From Geosiphon pyriformis uo1 (taxonomy: Eukaryota > Fungi > Glomeromycota): a stretch of 64,000 bases of DNA. Where the stretch lies: contig JAAOMT010000134.1 in NCBI GenBank assembly GCA_016748015.1, positions 3,429 to 67,428 of the forward strand. The letters are read 5' to 3'. The position numbers were made by a program, and so were the translations under genes. The number at the start of each line of letters is the position of its first letter. Position 1 is the first letter of the stretch. The notes beneath the pieces are model-generated. The model saw only the letters and a list, made by a program, of their open reading frames with translations. It had not been told where the DNA came from and did not search any database. Positions 1,838-27,501 of the stretch are shown in pieces.

Positions 1838-1839
1838 TT

Positions 1840-1850
1840 TGGTGCTCTCT
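1840..1850 (+). promoter_or_regulatory. A1 primer binding site TGGTGCTCTCT
   Basis: 2 nt after the LTR end; complementary to a tRNA 3' end AGAGAGCACCA. Confidence 0.85.
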
Positions 1851-1882
1851 CATGGAAATAACACAACAACAACAAATTCAAA

Positions 1883-2671
1883 GTGGTGATTACACCAGAC
1901 ACAACAACTCTAGAGTATTATCAGTCAATCTATACATACTGCAAGCAAAGATTTAACATCTAAGACGAAATTGAAATTTTCAAGAAATCACTATACTAAT
2001 ACATTGAAAATTGCATCAACAACTATCTTTTTGGAAACTACAATATTTCAGAAGTCAGAAACAACCTCTACAATAATTTAGTACACTATTCACAATTGGA
2101 AACAGAAGATTTAAACAGTGAAACACTTGCTACCTACTTCCAAGAACTTAATTTTAACATTATTGAGTATTGTGAAAAAAAATACCCAGTACAGCCCAAA
2201 TACTCTCTTGACTTTGAATCAAAAACAGAAACAAGCAACAAAGACAAACAAAAAGTAAAACAATATTTAAGAACGATTCCAAATACTCCAATACTACCAA
2301 AAACAACTGCCAAACACTTGCAAACACCTGAACAAGGAACCAGTATCAAAATACTACTTTCTATTATACCATTTCTAATTTCACTTATTCGACCATAAAC
2401 ACCAAATTCACCACTCAACCATTTCTCCAGACCAAAAGATTTTCAGTCACCTAAAAATCCTATTCAATAGCAGGAACCAATATCAACCAGCACCAATATT
2501 ATTGATTACCTACAAGAAAACAAAAGTAATTATTCAGAGAACTTGGAAAGTGAAGAAACTGAGTCAGAACAAAAAAAAACTACAGAAAATGAAGAAAAAA
2601 TGGCAACTGCTTACATTGCGAAGATACTAGAATTCACTAGTAAAGACAATGATACCAGTCCTCAAGAATGG
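1883..2671 (+). pseudogene. gag: A1 ORF1, 5' part (GTG start, Gag N-domain to start of capsid-like region)
   Basis: ORFs 2096 and 2543 share a frame; joins across the ATGG TSD as SPQEW|LDKVQKAGDAN at 22614. Confidence 0.85.
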
Positions 2672-3632
2672 TGTTACCAGAAGTTTTTGGTCTCTTCTTG
2701 TATGTTTGTTGTAATGCTGTTAATTCACAGCTATGGGAAGTGTTTGAACCTCTGATACTGAATTTTATCTTCAAATTATCTCCTATAATTTGAACCGCTG
2801 GGCTTATAAGTGGAATGGCCAATTCTGTGCCAGTTACTTGTGTAGTTACATTATAGTAAACATCAACTTTTTCCCAGGAATTGCTCGTCTGGAAGCTCAC
2901 TAAAAATGTGTAGTTACTTTGCTGTGAAAGTCAACTCTTCTACAGGAATCTTGTCTATAGACTACCCTAATGATTGTAAAAAGAAAAGAAAAGAAAAATA
3001 AAAAAAATATAAAAGAAATAGGATTTTATTAAGGGAAACGTTTTCTATCTAGGCCTGGAATCACTAACAGTTTACTGAAATTGGTAGCTAATCAATTTTG
3101 AAATGTTAGTTGGGTTTTGGAGATTTTTCAAGTACAATAATTAAAAAAATTTGGTTTTTCGAATTATTTGATATTTTTTTTTTTGTGTGTATAGGAATGG
3201 TTTTAAGAGATAAATCTAAAGTAAGATACATTTTCTCAAAGAGAGAAGCTCTTCTTTTATACAACTTGTTGTAACACTATTCTATAAACTTGAACTTTGC
3301 TATTTTCTATAATTTTGCTGAACTAAAGATACATTTTGGTAAACTACAAGTTATTTCTGTGAGCTATTAGATATTTTGGTAAACTATCAATTATTTCGGC
3401 AAATTCCTACAAATTTTGGCAAACTTTTTGAATGTTACATAGTTTGGGGTATTGTATGATTGATCATTGTAATTAGGTTATATTTGTGTTATGTACAAAT
3501 TGAGTTATTAATTAAATGATAATTTTGGATATTTTGCTAATGTAATAAGTGATAATTTGAAATGCAAATTAATAATAAAAATTATAAAGGTAATTTCATG
3601 CTAAGCAATATCTCTAATTTTGTCTGGTAACA
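2672..3632 (-). repeat. A2 3' LTR, preceded by PPT AAGGAGGAGGTTA (3633-3645)
   Basis: TG...CA termini; matches the split 5' LTR. Confidence 0.95.
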
Positions 3633-4320
3633 TAACCTCCTCCTTAAGACTGAGCTCCATTAAAGTCCAAGTACTGTCTGTAATTTCCAGATAGTAATCC
3701 AAGATTATTGAAGAAATTTGGTCTGAAAATTTTTGAAATTCCAGTTCTGTAAGCTTTCTAATATATTGAATCTTCAAGGATTGTAAAATTGGGTTTTGTA
3801 GGATGTTTTCACAGGTATGAAATAGGTCATAAAGTCTAAGAGCAGCTCTTAGTTTATAATAACTGTTTGTAGGTTCAGCTGTTGTCTTGAATTTGTTATA
3901 GAGTTGTTTCCAAATAGCTTCTTTTGTGAGATTTGCTGCTGTAAGCTCCCATTTTTGTTCGTGAAGTGTTTTTCCAATGTAGAAATATCTATATATTGGA
4001 GTATAGTCATAGTTTTCTTCATTAAAACACAGTTGAAGTTTTTGTTGAATAGTAGCATTTGGTGGAATACTAATAGGAGTGAGCATTAAGTTTTCTCTTA
4101 AAGCAAGCTTTAAAAGTTTTGGCAGGTGAATTCCAGAATAACTTCTTGTATTCTTCTTATATGAGTGATATTTTCATGAATTTGGGACTAAATTTGTAAT
4201 TACTTCTGTTTGGGTATAATTAATGTGGTTTCCAGTAACAGTAATAGATAATTCGGGTATTGTTTTTAAAGCTAACATTAGTTTTTGGGATAATTGTTGA
4301 ATGTTTTAAGGAATAGTCAT
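3601..4320 (-). pseudogene. A2 ORF3, unknown ~240 aa helical protein in env position, ending inside the 3' LTR
   Basis: ATG at 4320 (MTIP*NIQQLSQKLMLALKT) in frame with ORF 3601..4086 (YRYFYIGKTL, LRAALRLYDLF); homologous to A1 and B ORF3. Confidence 0.8.
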
Positions 4321-4440
4321 TATAAGAGATTTGAAAATAAAAGAAAATTATTTTTTGGTGTATGGGTTTTTATATTATTTTTGCTTTGTTTTTGTGAGAT
4401 TGTTTCTAAATTATAAGGAGATAATTATAATAAATTTAAG

Positions 4441-5823
4441 TTAAGTGTTCAAGTTGGGAGGTTGTTTAATAACAATGATTGGTTTTAAATTTCGAAGAAT
4501 ATTTTTGGGATTGATTAAAGAAGAATGACCAATTTGTAAAATTAATGGTTCAGAATTGTTTTTGGAATTATAGTGTTTCAAACAATCTCCATGTGCAACT
4601 TTTGCTAGGATTTTGTCATCAAGTCTTAGCTTGTATGATCCATTGCCTAGAACTTTATGAATAAAGAATGGTCCATCCCATTTATTTTCAAATTTCCCAC
4701 TCCATTGTTTTTTAGCTTTAGTTCTGTGTAAGAGAACTTTGTTTCCAATTTTAAATTTATTGGTGACTGGTGGCAATTTGTTGTCATGCCATTCTTTTTG
4801 TTAAGCTTGGAAGTATTCAATATGGGTGGCTGCTATTCATCATTTTCCTTCTAGTGTGCTAAGCAGAGTGTAGGCTCTTCATTGAAATGTTTTCTGGAAA
4901 TTGTTTTTATTGATTGGTTGTGCTGGGTATGTTTCTACTGTGAAATTAATTGATAATGTTGCTGTCCTTCTGTAAGTTAAATCAAATGGTGTGTGTTTTG
5001 TGGTATCTTGTTTTAGTGTCCTATATGCTAGTAACACTGATGGAATAAAAATATCTCATTCTTGCTCAAAATCAGTTGAGACTTTGGCTAATAATTCACA
5101 CAGTGTCCTATTAAAACGTTTCACAAGCCCATTTGTTTATGGATGGTAGGGCGAAGATAATAGTCTCTTAACATTAAATCATTCACAAATTTCCTGGATT
5201 AAATTGTTCACAAAATGTGTTCCTTGATCAGATAAAAGTTCTATTGAGCATCCATGTCTACAAATGATGTTTTCGTAGATAAAGTTTGCTACTAATTTTG
5301 CATCTGCTCGTTGAATGGCTTTGGCTTTAGACCATTTGGTGAGATAGTCTACAGCTACTGCAATATAATGGTTTCCTTGATTTGTGATAGGTAGTGGTCC
5401 AACTAAATTGATACCAACTTGGTCAAAAGGCTGTCCAACTTTGATTGGATTTAAAGATTCTGTAGGGCGTGTTCCTCCTCTTCTTTGACAACTATCACAA
5501 GAGTCAACATATTAATGTATGTCTCTTCTTATTTGGGGCCAAAAGTAGTGTTTTAATGTTCTTTGGGTGGTATTATCTTTTTCTAAATGTGCTGATGAAG
5601 GATCTGAGTGCATGTTGTATAAGATAGTTTCTTTTTCATGTTCTTGTATTAATTAGAGTGATTTGTTTGGATTTCTGGAGTTTTGATAATAAATGATGTT
5701 GTTGTGTAGGAAGTATTGTTTGGCTTGTTGTTGTAACCAATGTTTTTCATTTGGGGACCAATCTGTTGGGATTGTTAATGTCTCCAAATATTGTTTAAGA
5801 TTGTTGTAGTTTTCGGGGTTCAT
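4441..5823 (-). pseudogene. A2 ORF2, stand-alone integrase (HHCC, DDE core, GPF/SH3 C-terminus, no chromodomain)
   Basis: Starts MNPENYNNLKQYL; ends KWDGPFFIHKVLGNGSYKL...PNLNT*. Confidence 0.85.
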
Positions 5824-5872
5824 TGTTTGTCGTTTTGTTGCTGTTATTTCAAATGGGTGTTGGTTTTGTGTT

Positions 5873-8800
5873 CTAATCTTGTCTCATTCTTGAGAGACAA
5901 TCAATGTTGGTGTGGAGTTTTCCTGGTTTATGGTGTACAATATATCAGTAGTTGGCTAAAAATCCTGTCCATTGGGTTTGTTTGATGTTCAGCTGAGTGT
6001 TTTTGTTCTGAAGCCATTTGAGTCCAATATTATCAGTGATAATATTAAATTCCTTTGGCCAGAGATAAAGATTGAAATGATGTAGGGCCCAAATTACAGC
6101 TGCTGTTTCCAATTCAGTGGCAGGGTAATTTTTTTCAGCTGGTTTTAATGTTCTGCTGGCATAAGCAATTACTCACTCATTTCCTTGGTTATTTAATTGT
6201 GACAAAATGGCACCAAAAGCAGTATAAGAAGCATTAGTGGCTAGTCAAAACCGGTTATTGAAGTCTGGGTAGGCAAGAATTGGAGCTGTTGTCAGCTTTT
6301 CTTTGAGAATTTTAAAAGCTTTTTGGTGTTCGGTAGTCCATTTGTATTCAACATTTTTGGTGGTGAGCTGGTTGAAGGGTTTTGCAATTTTCGAGAATCC
6401 TTTAATAAACTTCCGATAGTAGAATGCTAATCCGATAAATCCTCTTAGTTCTGTGGTATTTCGAGGAGTTTTGAAATTTTTGACAGTGCTGATTTTTCTG
6501 GGATCAGGTTTAATTCTATCTTTGCTAACAATGTGACCAAAAAAAGCCAAACTTGTTTTTCCGAAGTAGCATTTTTTGATGTTCAGTTTCAATCCTGCTT
6601 TCCGTAATCATTGAAAAACTTCTCGCAGGTGTTTTAAGTGTAGTTTAAAAGATGGTGAATAAACATCAGTATCATTGAGATAGACAACTACTGATTTCCA
6701 AAGAAGGCCTTTGTAAACAACATCCATGAGTCTTTGGTGTATTGCATAATCTGAAAGGCATTATGTTGAACTCATAGTTTTTTTTTTGAATGGTAAATGC
6801 TGTTTTGGGGTGATCTTTGGGATCTATGACAACTTGCCAGTATTCACTCTCTAAATCTAATGTCAAGAAGTATTTGGACTTCCCAAGGGCATCTAACATG
6901 TTATTGATTCAGAAAAGAGAGTAGGCATCTCTAATGGTGATGCTGTTAAGTTGTCGATAATCAACACAAAATCGTATTTTTCCATTTTTCTTTTTAACTA
7001 GGACCACAGGTGAAGCCCATGGACTCATTGATGGTTGAATAAGCCCATTGTTAAGCATTCATTGCACTTCTTCTTGGATAAATTAATGACTTTCTGGAGC
7101 AACTCAGTAGGCTTGTTGTCGCCTTGGTTTGGCATCTCCTGTGTAGATTTGGTGTTGAACCAAATTGGTTCTTCTTAAGTCATTGTTGTTTTCAGCAAAA
7201 ATATCGGCAAATTCTGCAATTAGTTCTTTGAGCTGGTTCTGTTGTTGTGGTTCAAGTTGTTCTATGTTAATTCAAGATAGTTTTTCTATGACAACATGGT
7301 AGTTTTCAGAGCTGGGGTTTGGGTTGATTTTTGGTAGTGAATGTCCAATAATTTCAGAGAAATCGGAAACTGTTTGGGGTAATTCTGATTAAAAGATATT
7401 ACTGTAAATAACTCCAATTTCTAAGTTATTTAATAAAACTATAGGGAAATTGTTGGGATTGTAAAAATTAACTCAGATTTTCTTTGTTTTTTTTGGAATA
7501 TAAATGTTTGGAATCGAGATATTATGTTCCAAGCAGATTTGTTCATTGGACTCAAAAATTTGTTGTGTGGTTGTTGGCTTTTCACAAGTGTAAATTTCAG
7601 GGTGTTCTCCAAAGAGTGAAATGGTAATTGGTTGTGGAAGTCATAAAATCTGGTGAGATTTTTTCTGTTTGTTGAGAGCTATGTTTACTGAAACTGTGAA
7701 TCGTTCAGTTAAACCAAAACTTTGGGTTCCTCTTTTGCTTTTTTCCAATAGTTCTCTTTGATTGACTAATTGTAAACCTGAAATGTTGATTAAGAGTAAA
7801 TAAATGGCTTGGGCAATTTTCTCGGCATGTTCAATCTTAAATGGCTTGTTAATTTCATTTTGGAGTATTACTGTTATGTCACCAGTATATCCAGCATCGA
7901 TTATTCCTCCTCTGACATTGATTCCTTTGCTTGCCAGAGAGAACCGGGAGGCAATTTGAATCATTGCTCTTGGTGGAATTTCGAGAGCAATTTTGAGGTT
8001 GATTTTTGTAAAAGATTTGGATTTGAGAACAAGAGTATCCTTGTCTGGATATCTTAGGTCATATCCAGCATCAATTTCGTGTGCTTTTTCAGGTTTTATT
8101 TCTTGTCTGTTGTTGTTGAAGTATTTGAGTTGTAAGACAGACTGATTTTTGATAAGATAGATGGGTGTTGTTTCAATTTCTTCTGTTGCTTCCAGTTCTC
8201 CAAATTCAATTTTGTTCTCATCACTTTCACTGGGCAAGAGGATACTAAGAGCATAGCATTCAGGACACCACTGTTCATCACAAGGCATAATGCATTCTTC
8301 ACATAGCCTAATGTTCATTTGCTCTAATCATTGAATTTAAGCTTCTTGGATTGGGTAGATGTGACTTGCAATTTGGTGGTAGACTTCTACTTTATCTTTA
8401 TAATCAAATCCAGCTAATTCCATGGTGTATTCAATGTATTCTGCTTCCTTTATTTGATGGACATCTTCTTTGGTAGCTCCATTAATTAATGCCATTGCTA
8501 GGTCAAAAATCATCTCAGCATCATGGAAGTAGTGATAAAGTTTGTTGAGAGCACTGTTGTATGCCGCATTAAAGGGTGTTTCTCTTTTTACTTTTTCTGA
8601 AATTAATAAAGCATATTGGCAGGTCTGATTGCAGACTCCTCCTCTTATTGCTATGTTAATTCAATTGCATTCTTCCGGTAGCATATCTCCACAAGTCAAA
8701 CAAGAGGTGTTGTCCCATTTTCCGCTTCTTTTTATTAGATGACCCCATTGTTCTTTGTGGCAAGCCTTGCAGTAATAACAAGTATGATTTTCATATTCTT

Positions 8801-11491
8801 CTTTAGGTGAAATGCAGGCTCCCATTGATGAGAGTTTCTTGTGGCAATCTTTGCATTTGAGTGGAATGTAAGGGCATTGTTTTCATGGTTCTGGTTTTGA
8901 ATAAGAAATATTCCATCCAGTTGTCACTGGTTTTTTTGTTTCAAAAGAATCATTTGTTGAAAAGTATTGTTGTTCAGTTTCATCAGCCCAATTGGAGATT
9001 GATCCAAGTGCCATAAATGTTTCAATGATGGGTTTTTCTTCTGGTTCGAATTCAAAAGCTGGGGCTTTTCCAGAGCATTTGTTGAATGTACCACAAGTAG
9101 CAGGTACTTGGGCATGTTGTTCTTGATAGGAGAGTTGTAATTCTTGGGTTTTCCAGTCTAATTTTGCATTGGCTTTTTGAAACCAATCATTTCCGATAAG
9201 GGCTTGATACTGGGATGCGTCCATTACAAGAACTTTAACTAGAATAGTAATTTCATTTAGAGTAAATGGAAAATTGTCAATTTCTCCTACTGGAGTCTTT
9301 TTCATGCCATCAGCAGTAACGATTACTGTCTGAGCTGGTCGATCAACATTTCTCTTTAACTGTTGCATCAATTGGTAGGTAATGATGCTTCCGGCAGATC
9401 CACTGTTTAGGATCAAGTGAATTGTCTTTCCTTCAACTTCTGCTTCAGTGTACATAGCAGTGATTGCTTTTTGTTTATTGGCGGCTGCATTGATAAGCAG
9501 GAATGATGACTTATTTGCTTTGAACTCAAAAGGGAATATATCTGAAAGGTTGGCATTTTTAGCAATTCTGGCTGGTGGGATTGTGGTAGGAGTATAAGAA
9601 GAGTTTTGTTGTCATGCTGCAGCTCTACCTTCCGAAAGTGCAGTATAGTGAAAATCTTGTTTTTCAGGTATTATAAGATAGCTAGATTGAGTATGATAAT
9701 GAGAAGGTTTTGGTTGAGCTGGATTTCAGAGAACTAATTGGTTATTTGGGTTGATTCTGTTGTTGTTTATTGCAAATCAGTTTTATGGTGCAAATTGGTA
9801 TTGTTGAACCAATCTTCAAGCAGGTACTTGGTAATAGTGAATGGATTGTCGATACTGTTGTTGCATTGGTTGTAGAGCAGGTTGATAGTAGTCAGTTTAA
9901 TATTGTGGTCTTGGTGGATAGTAAGCTGGTAGTAGTGGTGGTTGGTAATAAGATTGTTGTGGCAAAGAGTAATGTTGATTACTCTTGTTTTGTTGGTCTC
10001 ATTGTAGCTTTTTGCAATCTCTTTTCCAGTGGCCAGGGATTCCACAGTAATGGCAATTCTGAGGCTGGTTATTAGAGGATGATATGAAGTTGTTTTGATT
10101 CCATCTTTGGGGTAGTTAATATCTTTGGGGTTGCTGTTGTTGTTGGTTGGTAAAATAGTTTTTGACTTTTTTTGTGAGTTGGTCAATTTTCTCTTCAGCT
10201 GCTGAGCTGGTCTTTCCAATGGCTAAGTTCATGAGTTTTGTACAATTGGCTTCTTCCATAGCCATTTCATATCTTTTTGCTTGCTAAATAACAGAGTTTA
10301 AATCTTCTGGGACATGTGAGCAAATCTTTTTAATCAGTTTATCCTTTAAACCAGTGATAAATTGATTTAAGATTTGAGCATCGGAATAATAATCATTAGT
10401 TTTAAGTTGGTGAATTTGTCTGAAAAGTTTGTTGAATTTCCCAATATAAGTTATAACAGATTCGGAAGGTTCTTGTTTGATATTGTGAAAATGATTTCGA
10501 AGTGTGATTGAAGTGTTGTTATCGGTAAATTGTTCTAAGAAGGCAGTTTTGAAAGCTGTCTAGTTATTAAAAGGGGTGGTCAAGTTTTCGAACCATTCGC
10601 CTGCTGTTCCTTTAAGAAAGTAAAAAATTGTTCTTAACATTCTGGCAGCATTCCATCCATTTGCATCTCCAGCTTTAATAACTTGGTTAAGCCATTCTTG
10701 GGGACTGGTCTCAATGTCTTCTCCATTAAATTCAGGGATTTTTGCAATATATGCTATCATTTTGTCTTCTTTGTTTTTACTGTCTATTGATTCTTCTTCA
10801 GATATTTCAGAGTCATTTTCTTTGTTCACTGCTGTCTCAGAGTGTTCACTTCAATTTTTAGCTAGAAAGTCAAGGAGATTGAAACTAGTTTGAAGGGGTT
10901 CTTGTTGTCTGGTAGAACTTTTGGGTAATGTAAAATCTTCTAGTCTTGCAAATCGATTTAAGAGTGAATTAGGTGTTTGTGCTTGTACAAGTGAAGCTAA
11001 AAAAGGTGTGATAGTAAGTGGAAGTTTTGAACTGGTTCCTTGTTCAGGTGTTTGTAAGTGTTTGACAGTTGTTTTTGGTAGTATTGAAATATTTAGGGTG
11101 GTTTTTGAGTATTGCTTCAATTTTTGTTTGCCTTTGTTGCTTGTTTCTGCCTCTGATTCAAAATCAATAGAGTATTGAGACTGCACTGGATATGTTTCTT
11201 TATAGTACTTGATAATATTAAAATTAAGTTCTTGAAAGTAAGTGGCAAGTGTTTTACTGTTAAGATCTTTGGTTCCCAACTGTGAATAGTGTACTAAATT
11301 ATTGTAAAGATTGCTTCTAACTTCTGAGATATTGTAATTTCCAAAAAATAATTGTTGATGTGGTTTTTAATGTATTGGTATACTGATTTTTTGACAACTT
11401 CAATTCTATCTGGAATGTTGAATCTTTGCTTACAGTGGGTGTAAATTGACTGGTAATACTCTAGAGTTGTTGTGTCTGGTGTGGTCGCCAC
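5873..11491 (-). pseudogene. A2 ORF1: Gag-protease-Cys-rich domain-dUTPase-RT-RNase H
   Basis: CCHC knuckle CHYCGIPGHWKRDC (~10020-10065), LNSGSAGS protease, DAGYDL and IIDAGYTG dUTPase, RT and RH motifs; ends SRMRQD*. Confidence 0.9.
7705..8085 (-). pseudogene. dut: dUTPase domain within A2 ORF1
   Basis: Motifs DAGYDL, ASRFSLASKG, GGIIDAGYTG, EKIAQ, KRGTQSFGLT. Confidence 0.9.
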
Positions 11492-11536
11492 TTTGAAGTT
11501 GTTTTTGCTGTGTTGTTTCTGTGGGAAAGCACCAAA

Positions 11537-11728
11537 TGTTACCAGAGGTTTTTGGTCTTTTCTTGTATGTTTGTTGTAATGCTGTTAATTCATGGCTATG
11601 AGAAGTGTTTAAACCTCTGATACTGAATTTTATTTTCAAATTATCTCCTATAATTTGAACTGCTGAACTTATAAGTGGAATGGCCAATTCTGTGCCAGTT
11701 ATTTGTGTAGTTACATTGTAGTAAACGT
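11537..11728 (-). repeat. A2 5' LTR, U5 part; PBS TGGTGCTTTC at 11525-11534
   Basis: Matches 2672-2863 with 13 differences, all transitions. Confidence 0.9.
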
Positions 11729-12599
11729 TGTTACAGATGATTATTTCTGCTGTTGAATTAAATAACAACCTGTAACTTGGTGCTTAAAAGCTACTTCCAT
11801 GGATGAGGTTTTGCAAAATGTTGTATCTGAAGGTTTTTATAAAATTCTTTGTATAATGGACAGAGATTTAATAGTGTTAATAGTAGGTGTATCTTTCTAA
11901 GAATTTTCCCAATTTCTTTCTTAGCATGGTGGCCAGATTTAATCTGGCAGTTGTGCTCTTCTGGTAAGCTATCCAATAATATATATAAAATCCTACCCTT
12001 ATTTCTGGGTCTTTTACCAGGCTATCCTTGATGTCAATAACTCAGTGCTTAATCCTTTTTTCAATTAGTATACACAATAATTAAATCAAATAAAATAAAG
12101 AAAAGAAATAAAAGAAAATAAAAAAAGAAAATAAATAAGTCCGGGCAGTTTGGCAGATTAGTATTCCGTTAATAGCTGTGATCAAGAGCTATTGTTCTAG
12201 TATAGTTAAGTATTAATTACAATCAACATGAAGTGTTAATAGTGGAGAGTGGATTGAGATGTGGAATAATTATTTATTTGATGATTTTGTTTTTTGGCTA
12301 AGTATTCTGTGGTATCAATTCTGTCTTTTCTATTTCTAACACTACCGCTATATATACATAATTGGGATTCCTTAATTCCTTGATTCTTCATGACAGGAAT
12401 CCTGGAATTCCTGGAATCTTGCGATTCCTTTAAGAGGAATTCTGGAATTTTGGAATCTTGCAATTCCTTGTCAGAGAATCCTGAAATTTCTGGAATCCTG
12501 CAATTTCTGAGAGGAATCCTGGAATTCCACATTTACTATGCTTACTTCTGATTGGCTAATAAGTATGCTAATATATTTCTTATATTTCTATAAGTAACA
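11729..12599 (-). repeat. B 3' LTR (871 bp)
   Basis: TG...CA termini; longer GGAATTCC/GGAATCCT array than the 5' LTR. Confidence 0.95.
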
Positions 12600-12612
12600 T
12601 TATTCCCTCTTT

Positions 12613-13272
12613 TTAATATTGAGTTCCATCAAAATCCAACTCATGTAATTCCCCCTCTTGAAGTATTTCCTGGATTTTGTTTTTGAGAATTACTTGTGTT
12701 ATTTGGGTCTGTAATTCTTCAAATTGAGCATTGGTGATTTTTTCCAATTGATTACTGGTAACCATATCTATTGCTTTGTTGAGCAATATTTCTGGTTTAT
12801 CCTGAAATGCTGTGTGTATTCGGTATATGGCTCGAGCTTGTGTGGATAAGTTGTTCTTTCCCACAAAATGTTCTAATTGTTGTAGTATTCTTTTGTCAAA
12901 TAATCGCTTTGTTTTATCCATATATAGATTCTGGATATTTACGTGTTGTCCCAAGTAAAAATAACAATAGTTTTGTGGAAATTGTTGTATCCACTAATTC
13001 CAAGTTTCTTTAGTCAATTCTTGATATAATGACTCTTTTGTCAATTCTTTTATTGCTAATTTTATTTTCACCATGATTTTGTCCACCATATTTTTAGTTT
13101 TCTTCAGTGTTCTGAGTTGTAATGTCTTTCTAGTATCTTGATATTAAATGGTTTGTTAATTGATTGTAATTTCTATTTTCTGGTGTTGGATTAATTAAAA
13201 GAGTTGTTGTGCTAGTGTGTGAATGTTGTCTGTAATTTCCATTTTTCTGATATTTCCTGTCGCGTCTACCAT
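12613..13272 (-). pseudogene. B ORF3, unknown ~220 aa protein homologous to family A ORF3
   Basis: One frame with point stops: MEITDNIHTLAQQLF...NYCYFYLGQHV...QARAIYRIHTAF...LEKITNAQFEEL. Confidence 0.75.
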
Positions 13273-13296
13273 GTCTTTATATATTTTTTTGATTGA

Positions 13297-14679
13297 TCAA
13301 TTTAATATGTTGTTGTTAATAAGAACAATTGGTTCCAGATCTTGTGGAATCTCCTCTGGTCGGACTAGTATTCTCTGTACTCCTAATTGTGGAATATTAC
13401 TGGTAAATGGTAGTATAATATCACGATATGGCTTCAGTCAATCTCTATGCACTGCTTTGGTTAAAATTTTGTTATCCAATCTTAATTTGTAAGCTTCATT
13501 TTCTAGAATTTCTTCTATGTGAAATGGTCCGTCCCATTTGGGGTCAAATTTTCCACTCCACTGTTTTTCTACTTTGGTACGATGTAGTAATACTTTGTCT
13601 CCAATCTTGAATTCAACTGGTTTGTCTAGTAGTTGACTATTATGTCTTTTTTTCTGTTTTTTTTGTGACTTTTGAATATTATTAGCTGCTTTTTTTCGTT
13701 TGTTTTCCAATGTTTTTATTAAGTCATATGTTCTTCTTAGCAATGTTTCTTGAAAATTTTCTTCTGTTATTGGTTCAGCTGGATATGTATTAATTTTTCT
13801 CTCTACTGGTAACATTGCTGTTCTCCTATATACTAATTCAAATGGTGTTGTTTGTGTAGTATCTTGTTTCATTGTCCGATAAGCAAATAGTACTGATGAT
13901 ATGAACAAATCCCAATTGTTCTGGTTTTTTTGGCTGAGCTTAGCTATTGCTTCACACAGTATTCTATTGAATCTTTCTACTAATCCGTTGGTTTGTGGAT
14001 GGTATGGTAATGATAATGATCTCTTGATTCCAAATCTTTGGCTCAATTCTGTTAATGTTCTGTTCACAAAATGAGTTCTTTGGTCTGATAATAATTTTTT
14101 TGGACATCCATGTCAACAAATCAAATCCTGATGAACAAATTTGGCAACGGATTCTGCATCTGCTCTTTGAATTGCTTTTGCCTCTGGCCATTTAGTGAGA
14201 TAGTCCATGGCTACTACTATGTATCTGTTTCCTCTGCTGGTAATTGTTAATGGTCTGACTAAATCAATTCCAATACGGTCAAATGGTTGTCCCACTTTGA
14301 TTGGTCTTAATGGTTTACTGGGTCTTGTTCCTCCTTTTTGCTGACAAGCATCACAATTTTGAACATATTGAATGATGTCTGGGTACATTGATGGCCAATA
14401 GTATCTCTTTCTGGTTCTTTCCATGGTTGCTTCTTTGTGAAAATGTCCTGCTGTTGGATTTGAATGCATGTTGAATAATATTGTCTCTTTTTCTGGCTCC
14501 GTAATTACTCTGGTTGGTTGATCTGGATCCTTTCTATTTTTTTGATAAAGTATATTTTGGTGAGTGATAAAATATTTTGATTGTTGTTTGATACTTTTTT
14601 GTTTTGTTTGAGATAAATTCTCCTTGAACTGTTGAGTGTTTATATAATGTTGCAATTGTTGATATTTTTGTATGTTCAT
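13297..14679 (-). pseudogene. B ORF2, stand-alone integrase
   Basis: MNIQKYQQLQHY; HSNPTAGH...CDAC; IGIDLV; YHPQTNGLVERFNR; KWDGPFHI. Confidence 0.9.
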
Positions 14680-14740
14680 CTTTTGTTGTATTTTTCATTG
14701 CTATTGTTCTGGTTTTGTTATATTTTGGGTTGAAATGTTC

Positions 14741-17700
14741 TTAGATTTGTCTCATTCATGATAAACCGTCCATATTTCCATTGTCTTTTCCTTTTTTATA
14801 ATATATAGTATACTTATATGGTGCGAGTGCCATTTTCCATCTTAACTGTCTTCCATCTCCAAATTTTTGTTTTTAAAGTGATGTTAATCCTTTGTTATCT
14901 GTGTACACTTCAAACTTCTGGCTCAAATATTCTTTCCATTTCATAACTGACTAGTATATTGCTAAGTGTTCTTTTTCCAGTGTTCCATAGTTCTTTTTGG
15001 CTGGTATTAAATCTCTGCTGGCATATGCCACTGGATGTTCTTTGCTATCTGATTCTCTCTAAGATAGTACTGCTTCTAATGCCTGGCCTGATGCATCCAT
15101 GGTAATGATGAATGGTTTGCTGTAATCTGAATAGATCAGTACTGGAGCTTGTATAAGCTTTCTTTTTAGAATATCAAAAGCTTCTTGTTGACTTTCAGTC
15201 CATTCATATTTTGTATCTTTGTTTTGCAGTTGGTTAAGTGGCTGTGCTATCTTGGAAAAGTTCTTAATAAAACATTGATAGTAGCTGGCAAATCCCAAGA
15301 ATGATTTCAGTTCTGTTATATTGGTCAGCACTGGAAAGTTTTTTACTATCTCTATTTTCTCTGGATCCGTTTTGATGCCATCTTTGCTGACTATGTGTCC
15401 CAAGAATTTTAGTTCTATCTTGCCGAAGAAGCACTTTGTTGCATTTAACTTTAGTCCTGTTCTTCTTAGTCTTTTGAACACTTGTTGAAGATGATGAAGA
15501 TGATCATCAAACATTTTTGAGAATACATTGGTGTTGTCTAAGTATACAATTACTGATTTCCACAATAAACCAGTATAAACAATTTTCATTAGCCGCTGGA
15601 AAGTTGCTGGGGCATTGGTTAAGCCAAATAGCATTACTTCAAATTCGAAATTCCCTTCTCTAGTAGTAAATGCCATCTTCTCTTTGTCAGCTGAATTCAT
15701 GGTTACTTGCCAGTAACCACAGTCCAAATCTAATGTTAAGAACTATTTGTTCCCACCGAAAGCATCAAATAATTCCTGTATTCGTGGAGTTGGATAACTG
15801 TCTCCTCAAGTTATACCATTGAGTTTCCTGTAGTCTACACAAAACCGGATTTTTCCATTCTTCTTATGGACGAGTACCACTGGTGATGACCATAGGCTCA
15901 TTGATGATTGAATTAGCCCATTGTTAAACATTCTGTTTATCTCTTGATGAATGATCTCATGGCTGGCTGGCGGCATTCTATATGCTCTTTGTTTGATTGG
16001 CATTGCATCTCCAGTCTTGATCTGATGCTGGATGATGTCAGTTCAGCCAAACTCATTTTCGCTGGCAAAGATATTGTTGAAATTGTTGAGTAATATCTTA
16101 AGCTGCATATATTGGAGTGGATCTAAGTTTCCCATGTTCATTTGTTCCAATTGTTCTGGTTGGAGCAAATAACATTCGTCTCGTCCATAGATTGGTTGTA
16201 ATGTAATGTCAACATATTCACAAAGTTGTGAAAAGTCTGGAATGGGGTTGGGTGGTTGGTCTTCTATTTCTGTGGTTAAATATCCGATGGTGGTTTCTTC
16301 TGGTATGTTAATGACATTGCCAGTGTTGTTGTAGATGGAAATTTTTATGCTGCTATAGCTTTTGGCTTGTATGTGGAGATTGATCAACCCAATTTCTCCT
16401 GATTCACAAAGGTTTGCTTTAGCTTCAAAAATTTGTCCTTGCTCCTTTTCTTTCTTTCCTATTGCTAACATGTACTGGCTATATGGTAGAATAGAAATAG
16501 CTTGACCAGTTGAGATAATTTCTTCTTGGCCAACAATTTCTTCCTCTGCCATATTGACTGGTACATCTATTCTACTCGTTAATCCAAATCTTTGTATTCC
16601 TCTCACTGTTATTCCTAATTCCTCCCTCTTTCCCACTGACATTAACTGAGCTACTCTAACCAGAGGCAGGAATATTGCCTGTGCTATCTTTTTGTTGGGC
16701 TCTATTATATAGGCCTTTTCGGAGTCATTTTGTAGCATGACAATGATATTTCCCATGTATCTCGCGTCTATTATTCCTCTTTTTATATTGATCCTTTTTT
16801 TTGCTAAACTACTTCTAGATGCTAATTGAACCATTGTTGTTGCTGGAATTTCTAGTGCTATTTTCAGATCAATGCAGGTGCGTGAATGTGGTTCCAATTT
16901 GATGGCCTCTTTTTCTGGATATCTCAGATCAAACTCTGCATCCGTATTATGCACACATTCTGGCATAATACCTTCCCCATTGTTACTATATCATTTCAAC
17001 TCTTGTTCCTTGGAAAGATCTAGTAATGCAATGTATTGTTCATAGTTTAAATTGGAGTTTGAATCTGAGTTGGAATCAATATTGTTGTTGTCGCCATATT
17101 GAACGGAGCTGGGACTGGTGTTTTCATTGTCATCATTGTCAGAGTTTGAATTGGGATTGAAAATTGATTCCGATTCTAATGCATATCTGCTGATTGGTTT
17201 TTCCTTTTCAAGGATTGTATAGATCATGCATAGTGGTGGATTGTAAATGAGGTCACACTTATCACAATACTGAAAGTCACAGGAAATTAGGCAGTGTTGA
17301 CATAGTTGAGCATTTAACTGCTCTAACCATTGTTCTTGTTCTTCTCTTGTGGGTGCTAATTTTTGGTAGTGTTCGTAGAATTGTTCCGGATCCAGGAGAT
17401 TTATGATGAGTTCTGCATCCCAGTCAAGTTCTAAAGATTCTGGGGGGTTGTCTTTGATTGTTTTTATTTCCTCAGGTGATGCCTCTTCAATTTTGGCAAG
17501 TGCCATTCGCCAAATCTTGTTGTTGTCATGGGGACAACTGTCCAGTCGCTGTACAGCTCTTCTCTAGGCTGCTTTTATTGGGGTTCCTTTCCTTACCCAG
17601 TTGCTTATTAGAATCGTGTATTGACATGATACGTCGTATGTTCTTCTATGTTCTAGGATGTTGTTCCACATCTTTTCATCCAGAAGAGTTTCTCTACAGG

Positions 17701-20700
17701 CTATACATGGCATATTATCCCATTTTTCCATTCATTTTGGTCTTTCAAAACATTTGATATGACATGCGCAGCAATAGAACTTGGTTGCCATCTGATATTT
17801 TTCATCGTCACCACAGCATGCACCCATTGATGACAATTTCTTGCCGCAATCAATGCATATCAGTTTGGGTCAGCAATAGGTTGATGGTTGTTGTTGACTG
17901 TAGGTGTATGGGATATAAACATTGTTGGCTTGAGTGTTTTTTTCCTCTCTCTCTTTCCCTTTTTCTTTTTTTTCTTTGTTTTCTTCCCATTTCCAGCTTA
18001 AAGTTGGTTCGCTCTCATCGTTGTTGGTCCAGGTCAAGTCATCAGTTTCCCAGGTAAGTTCTTCCTTTTGTTTCTCTTTTTCATTGTCATTGTCATTCCA
18101 GGGGAGTATTGGTGGCAGTTTGTTGTGCTCTTCATTAGTCCACGACACTTGGTAGGCTTCCCAGGTAGGTTTTTCTTTCTCCTCCTCTAGTTCAATTAAT
18201 AGTTTCTCTCTTGGAGGAGTCTTGAAGTGGCCACACGTGGCTGGTACACGTATGTGTTGGCCTTAATGTGTTAGTTGAAGTTCCTGAGTGTTCCAGTCTA
18301 ACATCGTGTTGACTTTGAATAGCCAGTCATTACCAACAAGAGCTTGGTATTGAGTGGCTTCCATTACTAGAACTTTAATGGGAGTCACGATGTCATTGAT
18401 TTTGAAAGGAAAGTCATCGATTTCACTGATTGGAGTTTTGGTCACTCCATCAGCTGTGATGATTTTGGCACTGGCAGTTTAATCAACTCGGCAACCTAAT
18501 TGGTCCATGAGTTGCCATGTGATAATACTGCCTACTGAACCACTGTCAAGAATAAATTTGATGGATTGTCCCTCGACTTTGGCATCAGTGTACATTGTGG
18601 TAATTGGTTTGGCTTCAAGAGCGGCTTCACTAAATAATAGCATTGCAGCTGTTTCCTTGAATTCAAATGAGAAGATAGCAGCCAAGGACTTGTTTTCGGT
18701 GATAATAGCAGGTGGAATATTACTGGTGAGTGGTTGTTTTTGGGTAAATGCCAAGTTATTGGTTGAGGCGTCTTCTGGGGTGACCAAGAGACTTAAATAG
18801 TTCTGGGAATTCGGGCTCTGGGTTTGACCAGTACCCGAATTCCACTGGCGTAATCCAGATGATTGCTGTGAAAAACTGGAGATTAGTTGATGGACTATTA
18901 TTGCCAATCTCCAGCTCTGTTGAGTCATTCTCGGTCTTTGGGTTCTATTGGATGGTAAGCTTTGGGGTGGTGTTTGGATTTGGGGTTGATAGATTATTTG
19001 TGGCTGCAGTTGTAGATAAATCACTTGTGGCTGTGGTTGATAGATTAAAGCTTGGTATACCAGAGACTAATAGATGGATGACTGCATCACTGGTAGATAA
19101 GTGGATTGGTTTTGATTTGGGTACTGATTTGGAGTTTAGAACAGACAATTGGGGTTTTGATATTGATTTCTTGATCATTGGTTATTTAAACGCTGATGAC
19201 AGTCAATTTGGATGTGTTTTTGTTTACCACAATAGTAGCAGATACACATTTCTTGTTGCCACCATTAATTGGTTGATAAAGATGGCCGTGGCTAATTTTG
19301 GGCATGATTAAAGTTTCCTTGATTATTGCGTCATTGTGGAGGCTGATAAATGGCATGATTGTCAGCTAAGTATCTTTCCAATCTCTTATTAATTGATTCA
19401 CTGAATTTCTCCAATTTGGAATCCAATTCAGATGATCCGTTTATTATTAGATTAACAGCTTGGGTGTGGTTAGCCTCTGACTCAGCGGATTCAAAATCTC
19501 TGGCATGTGTAACTGCATTTTGAAGGGTACCTAGATGCAACGGACGTACATGTTGCAAGATGCTGCTGTGCAGGCCACAGATAAACTGATTGAGTATCTG
19601 TGGTGCTGTGAAATAGTTGGCATCAATTGCTTGAATTTGGTGTAGGTTTCAATGGAAGCGTCCCAGGTAAGTAGTAACTGCTTCAGTTTCTCCTTGTTTC
19701 ATGGTGGTGAATGCATTGACTAGGCAATTGATGCTGTTATTGTTGCTGAAGTATCTTAGGAATTTCGCTTTGAAGTCATTAAAATCTTGTGGTTTATTAA
19801 TCAAGCTCTGGTACCATAAATTGGCAGTGTCCTTGAGAAAGTAGGGAATGGCTTACATTGCTCAAGCATCATTTCATCTGTTGGCTGCGATGGCCTTTTC
19901 TATATCATTCAACCATACTTGAGCATTATCCTCTTTGCCAGTAAAGTTGTCAAGTTTTGCGATTGGTGCGTAGGCCATTGGATTTAAGTTAGGTGGTTGT
20001 GGTGGCTGTTGAAGCAGTTGTTGTTGTACTGGTTGTTGGGGTGGTAGTTGAAGTGGCTGCTGTATGAGTTCGGCTATGAAATTAATTGGTGGTTGACTGA
20101 TGACAATTACTGGAGGTAAGTTTTGTTGATTAATTAATTCAGAGTTTGGATTGTTTTGCCTTTGATGATTCGGAGTTTTGATTTCTGAATTTTCTAGATC
20201 TGGATTTTGCTGAGTTTGAAAATTCAGGGTTTCAACTTCCCAGTTTTCAGTGATCGGGCACTGGTAAGTGAATTCTTGATCTTCTGATTCTTTTTCCTCT
20301 TTTTCTGATTCTGCTGCTTCCCACGGATCAGAGATTCCAAAATCTGGTGGAAGCAGTGGTAATCAAAGTCCTGATGGAGTTGATGATCGCGAATTAAATC
20401 CCTCAAAGTATTCGCCATATGGTCCTAACAATTCTGTTTTTCTTTGTCTACTTTGGAATGGGAATCATCCAAATGCTAATGTCACAGTTGATAAGAATGC
20501 ATCTGTTGATAATATGTTGATGGTGCTTCTAGGTGTATAGTAGTAGAATGGGTTGCCTGGGGATTCAACTCTGTTTTTCTTCCAAGCAGGTGGCTGTATT
20601 TTTCTGGGTGTTACTGCTGGTGTTTGTAATTTTCTCTTGCCTTTACTAGTGTATGTAATTGGATATCTTTGTTGAGTGTGATGTTCAATTTCTTTGTTGA

Positions 20701-20959
20701 TCTTAATGATGATAGATACAAAATTATGATTTGTTAGTAGATTGGTGTTTTGAATTAATTTTTTATAGAAAGTTTCTCTTGCTGATTCAGTATTCACTGG
20801 TGTTCCTAATAAAGAGAAAATCTTTTCATTGACATAGAAATTAAAGGCTGATTTGGCAGATATATAATTGTAGTTTAATTCCAAGTATTGACAATAGTGT
20901 TGAAATAAGAATTTTGCGAATCCTAAATAGTTTGCTCTTATATTTTCTGATTCTGCCAC
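14741..20959 (-). pseudogene. B ORF1: single-frame Gag-PR-Cys-rich-dUTPase-RT-RNase H (~2070 codons)
   Basis: ORF pieces starting at 20959, 19558, 19024, 18445, 18148, 17506, 16966, 16003 and 15727 share one frame; ILDSGS, RFCVDYRKLN, VYLDNT, TMDASG; ends MRQI*. Confidence 0.9.
16570..16966 (-). pseudogene. dut: dUTPase domain within B ORF1
   Basis: DAEFDLRY, ASRSSLAKK, GIIDARYMG, KIAQAIF, VRGIQRFGLT. Confidence 0.9.
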
Positions 20960-21002
20960 TTTTGGTTTGGTGTTGTCGGTGCTGGTTCTCTGTAAGATTA
21001 TA

Positions 21003-21019
21003 TCTCACAGAGAGCACCA
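21003..21019 (-). promoter_or_regulatory. B PBS TGGTGCTCTCTGTGAGA, probably for elongator tRNA-Met
   Basis: Adjacent to the 5' LTR; complement ...CTCACAGAGAGCACCA. Confidence 0.8.
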
Positions 21020-21021
21020 AA

Positions 21022-21836
21022 TGTTACAGGTGATTATTTTTGCTGTTGAATTAAATAACAACCCATAACTTGGTGCTCAAAAGCTACTTCCATGGATGAG
21101 GTTCTGCAAAATGTTGTATCTGAAGGTTTTTATAGAGTCCTTTGTATAATGGACAGAGATTCAATAGTGTCAATAGTAAGTGTATCTTTCCAAAAGTTTT
21201 CCCAATTTCTTTCTCAGCATGGTGGCCGGATTTAGTCTGACAGTCGTGCCCTTCTGGTAAGCTATTCAATAATATATATAAAATCCTACCCTTATTTCTG
21301 GGTCTTTTACCAGACTATCCTTGATGTTAATAATTCAGTGCTTAATCCTTTTTTTAATTAGTATACACAACAATCAAATCAAATAAAATAAAGAAAAGAA
21401 ATAAAAAAAAATAAAGAAAGAAAATAAATAAGCCTGGGCAGTTCGGCAGATTAGTATTCTGTTAATAGCCGTGATTAAGAGCTATTGTTCCAGTGTGGTT
21501 AAGTATTAATTACTATCAACATGAAGTGTTGATAGTGGAGAGTGGATTGAGATGTGGAATAATTATTTATTTAATGATTTTGTTTCTTGGCTAAGTATTC
21601 TGTGATATTGATTCTGTCTTTTCTGTTTCTAACACTACTACTATATATACATAATTGAGATTCCTCAATTCCTTGATTTTTCACAACAGGAATCCTGCAA
21701 TTTCTTGTCAAAGAATCCTGAAATTCCTGGAATCCTGCAATTCCTGAGAGGAATCCTGGAATTCCACATTTACTATGCTTACTTCTGATTGACTAATAAG
21801 TATGCTAATATATTTCCTATATTTCTATGAATAACA
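21022..21836 (-). repeat. B 5' LTR (815 bp)
   Basis: Matches 11729-12599. Confidence 0.95.
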
Positions 21837-21840
21837 ATGT

Positions 21841-22609
21841 CAACTCTTTCCCAGGAATTGCTCGTTTGGAAGCTCACTAAAAATGTGTAGTTACTTTGCT
21901 GTGAAAGTCAACTTTTCTATAGGAATCTCGTCTGTAGGCTACCCTAATGATTGTAAAAAAAAATAAAATAAAATAAAAGAAATGTAAAAGAAATAGGATT
22001 TTATTAAGGAAAACATTTTCTATCCAGGCCTGGAGTCACTAACAGTTTACTGAAATTGATAGCTAATTAATTTCGAAATGTTAGTTGGGTTTTGGAGATT
22101 TTTCAAGTACAATAATTAAAAAAATTTGGTTTTTCGAATTATTTGATATTTATTTCTTTTTGTGTGTATAGGAACAGTTTTAAGAGATAAATCTAAAGTA
22201 AAATACATTTTCTCAAAGAGAGAAGCTCTTCTTTTATACAACTTGTTGTAACACTATTCTATGAACTTGAACTTTGCTATTTTCTATAATTTTGCTAAAC
22301 TAAAAATACATTTTGGCGAACTACAAGTTATTTCTGCAAGCTATTAGATATTTTGGTAAACTATTAATTATTTTGGCAAATTCCTACAAATTTTGGTGAA
22401 CTTTTTGAATGTTACATAGTTCGGAGTATTGCATGATTAATCATCACAATTAGGTTATATTTGTGTTATGTACAAATTGGGTTATTAATTAAATGATAAT
22501 TTCGGATATTTTGCTAATGTAATAAGTAATAATTTGAAATGCTAATTAATAATAAAAATTATAAAGATAATTTCATGCTAAGCAATATCTCTAATTTTGT
22601 CTGGTAACA
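21841..22609 (-). repeat. A2 5' LTR, U3/R part
   Basis: Matches 2864-3632; ends CTGGTAACA. Confidence 0.9.
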
Positions 22610-22613
22610 ATGG

Positions 22614-25600
22614 CTTGATAAAGTACAGAAAGCAGGAGATGCAAATGATTAGAATGCAGCAAGAATGCTCAAAGCAATTCCATATTTTCTCCAAGACACT
22701 GCAAAAGAATGGTTTGAAAACTTAGAAGAATCATTTGAAAACTGGTAAGCATTCAAAGATGCTTTCTTACAACAATTTACTAACAACAATATCTTTATCA
22801 CTCTCTGCAATCACTTTCACAATATTAAACAAGAGACATCTGAAACTGTTATAACCTATCTTAAAAAATTTAATAAACTTCTTCAATGAATTCAACAATT
22901 GGAAACCAATGATTACTATTCCAATGCTCAGATTCTGGATCAGTTTATAGCAGGATTAAAAGACAAATTGATAAAAAAAGTTTATCCACATGTACCAGCA
23001 GACTTAACAACTGCCATTAGACATGCAAAAAACTATGAAATAACAATGGAAGAAGCAAACCACATCAAACTTGTCAACCTGGCTATTGGAAAAACCAGCT
23101 CAGCAGCTGAAAAAAAGATAGACCAACTCACAAAAAAGGTTGAAAGCTACTTTACAAATCAACAACAACAGCAGCAACCACCACAAAGATATCAACCTCC
23201 ACAACAATGCAATCAAAATGGCTTTGGATTACTATCTAACAACCAATCTCAAAATTGTTATTATTGTGGAATTCCAAGACACTGGAAACAAGATTGCAGA
23301 AAATTGCAAAGAGACCAACAAAACAGGAGTAATCAATATTACCCTTTACTACAACAATCTTATTACCAACTTCTACCACCAACTCATTATTCACCAAGAC
23401 CACAAAATTAAAACAATTACTATCAGCCAGCTCCACAACTAATGCAGCAACAATATCAGCAATCTTTATCAATTTAGCAATATCAACCACTTACTCCACA
23501 ATATCAAGTACCAGCCAGAAGACTGGTATAACAAAACTAATTCACACCACAAAACCGTTTTTTAACAAACAACAACAGAATCAATTTAAATAACCAGTTG
23601 GTTCTCCAGAATTCTGGTCAGCAAAGACCCAATCACTATTACACTCAGCCCAGTTATTTAACAATGCAAAAAGAATCGGATTTTCAACAACCTGCACTTT
23701 CTGAAAGTGAAGTTATAGCACCAAGATCAGACCCTTCCAACAACACCATTTCACCAGCCCAAATTGCCCAAAATGTTAACCTTTCAGATATATTCCCATT
23801 CGAATTTGAAGCAAATAAATCACCATTCTTGCTTAGTAATGCAGCAGCTATGAACAAAAAGCTATTACTGTCATGTACATTGAAGCCACAGTAAAGAGAA
23901 AACTTATTCGATTAATTCTAGACAGTGGATTAACTAGAAGTATCATCACATACCAATTAATGCAACAACTTGATTGAAATGTTGACAGACCAGCCCAAAC
24001 AGTAATTGTGACAGCAGATAATATAAAAAAGACACCAGTAGAAAAAATTAACAACTTCCCATTCACCATTGATGAAATCACCATTCCAGTTAAAGTTTTA
24101 GTTATGGATACACCCTAATACTAAGTTCTTGTTGAAAATGATTGGCTTCTTAAGGCCAATATAAACTTAGACTGGGAAACTCAGGAATTAAAAATCTCAT
24201 ACCAAAGACAATACACTATAATACCTGCTACTTGTAAAACTTTCAACAAATAATCAGAAAAAGCCTCAGTGTTTGAATTTGAAGAGGAAAAAAAAATGCC
24301 ATTCACTAAAACCTACATGGCTTTTGGATTAACATCCAATTGAGCTAAGAAAACAGAACAAGAGATTTTTAAAGAATCAAGAAGATAGAAAAAAGTTAGA
24401 TATTTTACACCTGAACCATGAAAAAAACCACAATACATTTCACTAAAATACAAAGATTGCAAAAAGAAGCTTTTATCTATGGGAGCCTGTATTTCTCCAG
24501 AAGAGGAATACAAAACTTGCACTTGCTACTTCTGCAAAACATGCCATAGAGAATGATTTGGATCCTCAAAAAAAAGTAGAAAATGGGACAACACACCTTG
24601 TTTTACATGTGGAGATATGCTATCAGAAGAATGCAATTGGATTGATATTGCAATGAGAGGAGGGGTATGTGATCAAACCTGTCAATATGTCCTATCAATT
24701 TCGGAAAAAGTCAGAAGAGAAACACTATTTGATGCAACATACAACAATGCTCTCAATAAACTCTACTACTATCCTTATGATGCTAAAATAATTTTTGATT
24801 TGGCAATGACATTAATCAATAGAGCCACCCAAAAAGATGTCTGCCAAATAAAAGAAGCTGAATATATTGAGTATACAATAAAATTAGCTGGATTCAACTA
24901 TGAAGATAAAGTGGAAACATACCACCAAATTACAAGCTACACTTATCCAATCCAAGAAGCTCAAATTTAATGATTAGAGCAAATGAATATTCAATTGTGT
25001 AAAAAATGCATCATGTCTTGTAATAACAAATAGTGTTCAGAATGCTATGTTCTTAGCATTCCTCTGCTCAGTGAAAATAACCAGGAAGAAATCGAATTTG
25101 GGAAACCAGAAACAAAGAATAAAACCACAACAACACCAATCTATTTTACTGAAAACCAGCCTATTATACAACTCAAATACTTTGACAACAATGGGCAAGG
25201 AATAAAACCAGAAAAAGCTCACGAAATTGATGCAGAATATGACTTCAGATATCTTGACAAAGATACTTTAGTTCTTCAACCAAAGTTCTTAACAAAAATC
25301 GACCTCAAAATTGCCCTTGAAATTTCATCTGGAACAATAGTTCAAATTGCATCCAGATTATCATTGGCAAGCAAAGGAATTAACATTAAAGAAGGAGTTA
25401 TAGATGCAGGATATACTGAAGACATTACTATCATGTTGCAGAATGAAACAGACAAACTATTCAGGATTGAACATGTTGAAAAAATTGTCCAAGCAATTTA
25501 CCTACTCTTAATCAACATTTCAGGTTTACAATCAGTTAACAACAGAAAACAATTGGGAAAAAGTGAAAGAAAAATGCAAGGTTTTGGTTCAACTGGATGA

Positions 25601-27445: not shown

Positions 27446-27501
27446 TAACACCAACAAATCGACTATAACTTACCAACCTACCAACAAATAATAAAGCAAC
27501 A

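Follow-up and report, generated by a model that had tools for sequence, protein, structure and literature searches.

ORF3, a conserved non-Env accessory gene adjoining the integrase of Ty3/Gypsy elements in Geosiphon pyriformis, and its possible role

Our analysis indicates that ORF3, which occupies the env position of LTR retrotransposons of Geosiphon pyriformis, is a real, conserved, non-Env accessory gene tied to the Gypsy integrase, and one that is apparently undescribed. The work started from a window of 64,000 nucleotides (the whole stretch of DNA analysed here) and was extended to protein and metagenome databases. In a literature search that left most subscription papers outside its range, no description of an ORF3 of this fungal Gypsy group was found. 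The first-pass annotation of the window had offered a transactivator, a silencing suppressor or a targeting factor as possible roles for the product; among these, the evidence leans weakly towards a regulator that binds the LTR.

Carrier elements and genomic position of ORF3

The DNA of the window is AT-rich and depleted in CpG (0.21 of expectation), and self-comparison together with junction reading revealed a nest of LTR elements, with B inside A2 and A2 inside A1 (Table 1). LTR elements make up 41.2% of the Geosiphon genome, according to the available text of PMC11952901. B is a Ty3/Gypsy element, with paired TG...CA LTRs, a target duplication, a PBS-like site, a PPT and the Pfam domain order of Gypsy (protease, dUTPase, RT, RNase H and integrase), and the A pieces scanned with Pfam yielded gag, protease, dUTPase and the tail of integrase. 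A chromovirus class was not supported for B and A2, as no Chromo match was found with Pfam within the integrase pieces scanned (B 13441-14694 and A2 4444-4800, the last 46 B pol codons lying outside the scan). Upstream of the dUTPase, B pol also contains a Cys-rich stretch with several CxxC pairs (~17250-17320, minus strand) that has no Pfam match. The two B LTRs are 92.4% identical to each other, with transitions accounting for 61 of the 62 differences, and the LTR pairs of all ORF3-bearing window copies share 92-94% identity, the differences again being nearly all transitions—which marks A1, A2 and B as old, decaying copies.

Several other repeats were observed in the window. These include a solitary B-type LTR (39532-40408), a truncated B-type element broken up by a second B-type LTR (51434-56347) and element A3 (56348-64000), which is inserted in that second LTR, contains a 20-N run in its gag (58942-58961) and would have its ORF3 position past the window end. 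Decayed non-LTR-like elements at 32149-38726 (-), 46793-48433 (-), 49910-51082 (+) and 42457-42936 (-) gave weak RT (E 6e-5) and RNase H (E 2e-5) matches; pieces of such elements constitute 15 of the 60 C-terminal extensions of ORF3 in database gene models. A degenerate tandem array of ~87-bp units spans 44790-45693, flanked by a 1-kb direct repeat (43315-44294 and 45830-46800).

Table 1. Coordinates of ORF3, its carrier elements and associated features in the window
Feature	Position	Strand	Remarks
Element A1	848..30685	+	4-bp TSD ACAG; split by A2
Element A2	2672..22609	-	4-bp TSD CCAT; inserted in A1; carries B
Element B	11729-21836	-	TSD ACAT/ACGT; site is the 5' LTR of A2
B 5' LTR	21022..21836	-	followed by PBS-like TTTGGTGCT; 4-bp target duplication ACAT/ACGT flanks B
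B gag-pol, broken	13297..21021	-	protease (weak), dUTPase, RT, RNase H, integrase (H2C2, rve, SH3_Tf2-1)
B pol stop and spacer	13299-13297 (stop); 13273..13299 (whole)	-	24-nt spacer with TATATAAA, 41 nt before the conserved Met
ORF3 of B	12613..13272	-	219 codons, single frame, 4 in-frame stops
B polypurine tract (PPT)	12600..12615	-	purine run 12603-12614; overlaps ORF3 stop codon
B 3' LTR	11729..12599	-	ends TGTTA...TAACA
B U3 repeat array, candidate binding site	12350..12540	-	CAGGATTC / GGAATTCC units
ORF3 of A2	3601..4320	-	2 internal stops; crosses PPT, ~30 nt into 3' LTR
ORF3 of A1	29039..29746	+	2 internal stops; lacks first Met; crosses PPT, 19 nt into 3' LTR
A-family U3 array, A1 5' LTR	1054..1155	+	five units, 20-21 bp period
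A-family U3 array, A2 3' LTR	about 3326-3426	-	same array as in A1
A-family U3 array, A3 5' LTR	about 56563-56663	+	same array as in A1

The coordinates first given for B ORF3 proved right: its 219 codons run in one frame from 13272 to 12616 on the minus strand without a frameshift and are followed by TAA at 12615-12613. The internal stops are TAA at codons 26, 39 and 43 and TAG at codon 93. In the alignment, the A proteins begin opposite codon 11 of B, which is its second Met. The stop codon of B ORF3 abuts the PPT, unlike the A ORF3s, which (as the first reading of the sequence had it) continue through the PPT and end inside the 3' LTR, by ~30 nt in A2 and 19 nt in A1. A DNA motif located just 5' of the PPT is kept in all lineages (12615-12630, 3640-3660 and 29700-29725 in the window, and 3088-3116 in metagenome contig L001). 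This motif is common to A, B and the metagenome element, and A and B read through it in different frames, so the last 10-20 codons of ORF3 are shaped by a cis signal; the motif itself is a candidate signal for plus-strand priming or integration.

ORF3 follows integrase wherever the sequence allowed this to be seen, namely in three of three elements of the window and in the two metagenome contigs with sequence upstream of it, and it is sense-oriented in each of the five elements read. Its distance from pol is 24-316 nt. Database gene models point the same way, since 39 of 335 ORF3-bearing proteins have more than 30 extra N-terminal residues through gene-model fusion; 32 of these 39 extensions match window elements—all of them gag or pol, with 28 nearest to integrase—and seven are unmatched. 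The adjacency of homologues to Gypsy integrase is borne out in all three sources (3/3 window elements, both metagenome contigs and 28/32 fused gene models), and no free-standing ORF3 was seen outside an element among the five copies for which genomic context was read. ORF3 shares the frame of pol in B and A2 and is out of frame in A1 and L001, and the A2 spacer contains four stops; because the frames differ between elements, conserved read-through from pol was rejected. The stop of B pol appears to be common to its copies: in contigs of sequencing run X1, TGA to TAA was the sole variant among those listed, whereas the reads of runs X2 and X3 give no coverage of ORF3. By-eye inspection supported no conserved splice acceptor for ORF3.

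Homology, selection and range

The A and B proteins are homologous, as the first-pass annotation had proposed from four pairs of short motifs, all of which are aligned in the BLASTP comparison of B with A2 (48 of 207 positions identical, 23%; E 3e-6). BLASTP also aligned B with A1 (25/98 identical, E 2e-7), and a profile-profile comparison of the two families covered 185 columns with a probability of 93% and an E value of 3.2e-7. The A1 and A2 proteins are 66% identical.

Family A ORF3 is under purifying selection, like gag and pol. The estimate comes from the A1/A2 pair (the window holds a single B ORF3), for which dN/dS is 0.28 (0.19-0.40; 231 codons)—a value that falls inside the range of 0.17-0.31 obtained when five gag and pol pieces were compared between the two elements. 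Transitions bias the method low: non-coding controls, treated as if they were codons, yielded 0.39-0.76, and the ratio alone therefore overstates selection on ORF3. We conclude that selection is purifying because the differences between the A1 and A2 genes follow codon position (0.27/0.14/0.35), as do their transversions (18/14/39), and because each of the five other frames contains 19-35 stops; in the non-coding controls, the distribution over codon positions is flat (0.17/0.20/0.17 for the A1-A2 LTR pair). The early suggestion of a protein under selection thus stands, with a ratio that is not near 1 and a codon-position pattern unlike that of the controls. Since the window copies are old and broken, this selection acted on their ancestors.

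Every named relative of ORF3 is a hypothetical protein of Geosiphon pyriformis, where five families occur. This applies to all 120 relatives listed for A2 ORF3, out of 177, and to all 106 relatives of B ORF3. When 1.84 billion representatives were searched with a profile, 113 proteins were recovered, 87 of them new; 23 of the new ones share less than 50% identity with the reference proteins of A and B. The ten proteins that were looked up comprised seven from Geosiphon, two full-length metagenome relatives (P0259 and P0262) and one unrelated repeat. A third search yielded 32 proteins, namely 31 from Geosiphon and P0262, and no ORF3 relatives were found in IMG/VR. Together with two metagenome lineages, the Geosiphon families make seven, with 23-43% identity between families. 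Our phylogenetic tree, built on 22 chosen rows, separates two groups, subject to a warning from the tool that long branches meet: one unites A and the two metagenome proteins, the other B and three more Geosiphon families.

Among 523 candidate stretches from metagenomes, three could be confirmed. One of them, L001, contains integrase, a 316-nt spacer, an intact ORF3, a PPT and the start of an LTR, the whole of which is present in a second, L003. The third, L002, contains an integrase tail and ORF3, with an extra ORF of 128 aa between them (425-811), such that two ORFs occupy the env position in this case; compared with the ORF3 profile, the extra ORF is not ORF3-like (E 0.53).

Protein character, predicted fold and remote resemblances

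The ORF3 proteins are about 209-240 aa long and basic (pI 8.8-9.6), with 0-2 Cys residues. No hydrophobic helix was detected in any of the seven proteins examined, in which the best 19-residue Kyte-Doolittle mean ranged from 0.27 to 1.28. This agrees with the original remark that the protein has no obvious transmembrane helix or hydrophobic signal and is not a classical Env. The product is instead predicted to be soluble and helical. An AlphaFold model of the metagenome relative P0262, based on 71 sequences, had a mean pLDDT of 81, with 82-96 in the core blocks. Its N-terminal part consists of a helix, a two-strand hairpin and another helix (pLDDT ~60-75), followed by a compact helical core at residues ~80-200 with a pLDDT of about 90. 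Modeling of the B protein itself (P0124) with 23 sequences reached a pLDDT of 51 and was set aside, so the good model is that of P0262, not B. Within the core, a helix-turn-helix-like pair is predicted, the second helix of which starts at an invariant Asn (N145). In this putative recognition helix, the first two turns after the Asn vary by family and are followed by Arg/Lys columns; conserved basic columns around N145 are K131, R151, R155 and K182.

Searches for a known relative of this fold gave no solved match. Foldseek returned no match at E <= 0.001 against PDB and BFVD, a sequence search of PDB found nothing under E 0.05, and the best Z score of VIA-align among 48,161 chains was 5.5, which is under the usual background of the tool, with the N-terminal 48 residues barely covered. 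Likewise, no significant family shared by the ORF3 proteins emerged from Pfam, PHROGs or NCBIfam, and the Pfam result agrees with the initial view that the protein matches no known TE domain. Matches to Glypican (4/71 members, best E 3e-5, B family only), FtsQ (19/71 members, A family only, at 14-16 bits vs. a cut-off of 366) and phrog_23683 (13/71 members) were taken as chance because each is limited to one close family. In the ESM Atlas, P0004 fell nearest to an archaeal cluster (0.91) and P0262 to a 190-aa Mucoromycota cluster of 98 members (0.94; 176/256 features), both under the recognition threshold; the latter cluster may represent a wider fungal family. Other Glomeromycota may contain expanded helical families with a similar pattern.

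DUF1016_N (PF17761) and DUF3102 (PF11300), bacterial domains with a putative DNA-binding role, provided a weak lead that is below significance and does not amount to an assignment. In Pfam, DUF1016_N matched four of the 71 members at E 0.015-0.05 and 14-16 bits, missing the gathering score of 32.8. Profile-profile comparison placed ORF3 against DUF1016_N (E 0.037) and Firmicute DUF3102 (E 0.034) in the same register, with an hhalign probability of 1.4-1.9%; one of 100 block-shuffled controls reached the score for DUF1016_N and none of 100 that for DUF3102, and reversed ORF3 was negative. The comparison sets comprised 90 YhcG N-terminal domains and 31 DUF3102 domains, leaving out one YhcG-like sequence with a stop (L016) from the alignment and two short rows of the 71 from the core profile; against each other, the two sets gave E 1.3e-4. 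Two other ORF3 alignments did not reproduce the resemblance (E 0.23 and 0.3), cyanobacterial DUF3102 aligned in another register (E 0.11), and the score of a merged profile was reached by 24 of 100 shuffles. Matches just as weak also went to families without any relation, FtsQ and phrog_23683 among them. Both domains share with ORF3, in the same order and register, an aromatic-x-I-G helix, a second helix, a turn and an Arg/aromatic helix. Unlike ORF3, however, they are usually fused to nucleases or long tails, whereas ORF3 has an N-terminal helix-hairpin of its own. The YhcG N-terminal domain is described as helical and unassigned (PMC1189080), and no function is given for the lead domains in the available text of PMC1189080 and PMC4738411.

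Possible roles and comparison with known systems

Drawing on the predicted fold and on repeats in the LTRs, we propose tentatively that ORF3 may act as a sequence-specific LTR-binding activator or anti-silencer. The soluble, helical protein would bind short repeats in the LTR of its own element, with the second helix of the helix-turn-helix-like pair reading the DNA and the U3 array being its putative target. ORF3 might be expressed from an mRNA of its own, through a promoter in the pol-ORF3 spacer, and its binding would then increase transcription or hold off host silencing, as with plant VANC. CG methylation and small RNAs at TEs are reported for the related R. irregularis in the available text of 10.1101/2021.03.30.436303, and this, together with CpG at 0.21 in the window, points to silencing to evade. 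A more elaborate version, in which a Gypsy-encoded transcription factor with a domain akin to DUF3102/DUF1016_N drives its own promoter and its recognition helix has co-diverged with phased LTR repeats, is rather unlikely.

The candidate binding sites were read in three lineages, and the U3 arrays differ among them, the motifs having been chosen after inspection. Four units of the A-family array fit a strict pattern that is missing from the A2 interior and from B. In B-type LTRs, CAGGATTC occurs 4-7 times, against control maxima of 3-4, and TTGCCCT is present three times in the U3 of the metagenome LTR. The period of the A-family array corresponds to two helical turns, several of its units carry a CpG in the core, and the array is kept between subfamilies with 81%-identical LTRs. 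Upstream of ORF3, the U3 motif is clear in one of four elements: in the L001 spacer, TTGCCCT appears twice, 21 bp apart and ~50 nt before a TATA-like box, and is absent from L001 pol. Their own motifs were matched twice in B (16 of 90 control tiles score as high), once in A1 (within conserved integrase codons) and not at all in A2. TATA-like boxes are present in four of the five pol-ORF3 spacers, but a significant TATA box was not supported, as each is within chance (P 0.06-0.45). Repeat arrays are also frequent in the U3 of elements that lack ORF3, and host factors may bind them.

Parallels to an LTR-binding regulator come from plants. VANC of the Arabidopsis VANDAL elements combines, as the working model would have it for ORF3, an element-encoded protein with family-specific tandem motifs, the two diverging together; VANDALs, however, are DNA transposons, and the activity of VANC is experimental whereas the role of ORF3 is a proposal from sequence, and no homology was found (available text of PMC5735166). 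TRP28 of Retand also lies between pol and the 3' LTR, near repeat arrays; it is a conserved accessory ORF without an assigned function, for which a part as DNA-binding regulator of its element has been proposed. As far as the available portion of PMC11963269 describes it, TRP28 is antisense within a region of 3-6.5 kb, whereas ORF3 is in sense orientation 24-316 nt after pol; this description sets the two apart, and no sequence link was found. Among animals, the bdelloid rotifer elements Juno, Vesta and TelKA also have a sense third ORF in the env position, a dUTPase between protease and RT, TG...CA LTRs and no chromodomain. In these rotifers, ORF3 encodes an Env-like protein, a GDSL esterase or a DEDDy exonuclease (available text of PMC5408684), and the fungal ORF3 matches none of those Pfam families. 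A dUTPase is present in fungal Gypsy elements as well (PMC2864245, in part).

A doubtful but serious alternative is that the ORF3 product binds the genomic RNA of its own element and serves in its export, stabilisation or packaging, in the manner of CERV or retroviral Rev, or shields it from small-RNA silencing. A small, basic, soluble and element-specific protein would suit this function, the U3/R repeats occur in RNA too, and CERV of C. elegans Cer1 sets a precedent, being an accessory Gypsy protein other than Env that is confined to its lineage, with demonstrated function and no homolog beyond its clade (available text of PMC10309623). Nevertheless, ORF3 contains no Arg-rich or other known RNA-binding motif and has no Pfam match; moreover, CERV, as that source describes it, is a spliced, RNA-exporting protein of 517 aa that shares gag exons and has a Cys-rich ring domain, whereas ORF3 stands by itself downstream of pol and encodes 210-240 aa. 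By these features ORF3 is not of the CERV type, being a separate 209-239-aa ORF with 0-2 Cys.

It is less probable still that ORF3 acts as an integrase partner steering insertion to chosen chromatin, in place of the absent chromodomain. The constant adjacency to integrase, the lack of a chromodomain match in the integrase pieces scanned and the ORF3 frame shared with pol in B and A2 are in line with such a function, and so is the insertion of B in an LTR of A2, of A2 within A1 and of A3 in a B-type LTR. Nesting of this kind is nonetheless expected where LTR elements occupy 41% of the genome (available text of PMC11952901), and the shared pol stop and differing frames argue against a conserved read-through fusion. 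An unconventional envelope or movement protein, carrying particles between cells or hosts, is very improbable: although ORF3 lies in the env position and related lineages occur in different organisms, the protein has no hydrophobic helix, few Cys and an all-helical core, no fusion-protein match was found in BFVD or PDB, and the hyphae of the host group are multinucleate and lack regular cross-walls, which lessens the need for such a protein. Finally, the notion of a passenger, in which a frame captured or arisen by chance persists solely through its overlap with 3'-end cis signals, fits the shaping of the last 10-20 codons by the pre-PPT motif and the broken state of all three window copies, but is already largely refuted, and hardly credible, given the codon-position and transversion pattern over 231 codons, conservation between families at 23-43% identity, an intact copy in a separate lineage (L001) and a confident fold obtained from covariation.

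These findings have implications for both the elements and their host. Gypsy elements of plants and animals are known to carry additional ORFs downstream of pol, few of them with a function, and to these ORF3 adds a new protein family whose fold, predicted with confidence, matches no solved structure. Several hundred 'hypothetical proteins' of Geosiphon are also reassigned by the analysis to retrotransposons. As the candidate binding sites differ by family, specificity can be tested by cross-family binding. Should ORF3 prove to activate the LTR or to counter silencing, VANC would have an equivalent in a fungal retrotransposon, and there would be a lead to follow on the burst of LTR elements in Archaeosporales; were the self-driven transcription factor to prove true, the resulting positive-feedback anti-silencing loop would help explain why LTR elements make up some 40% of the Geosiphon genome.
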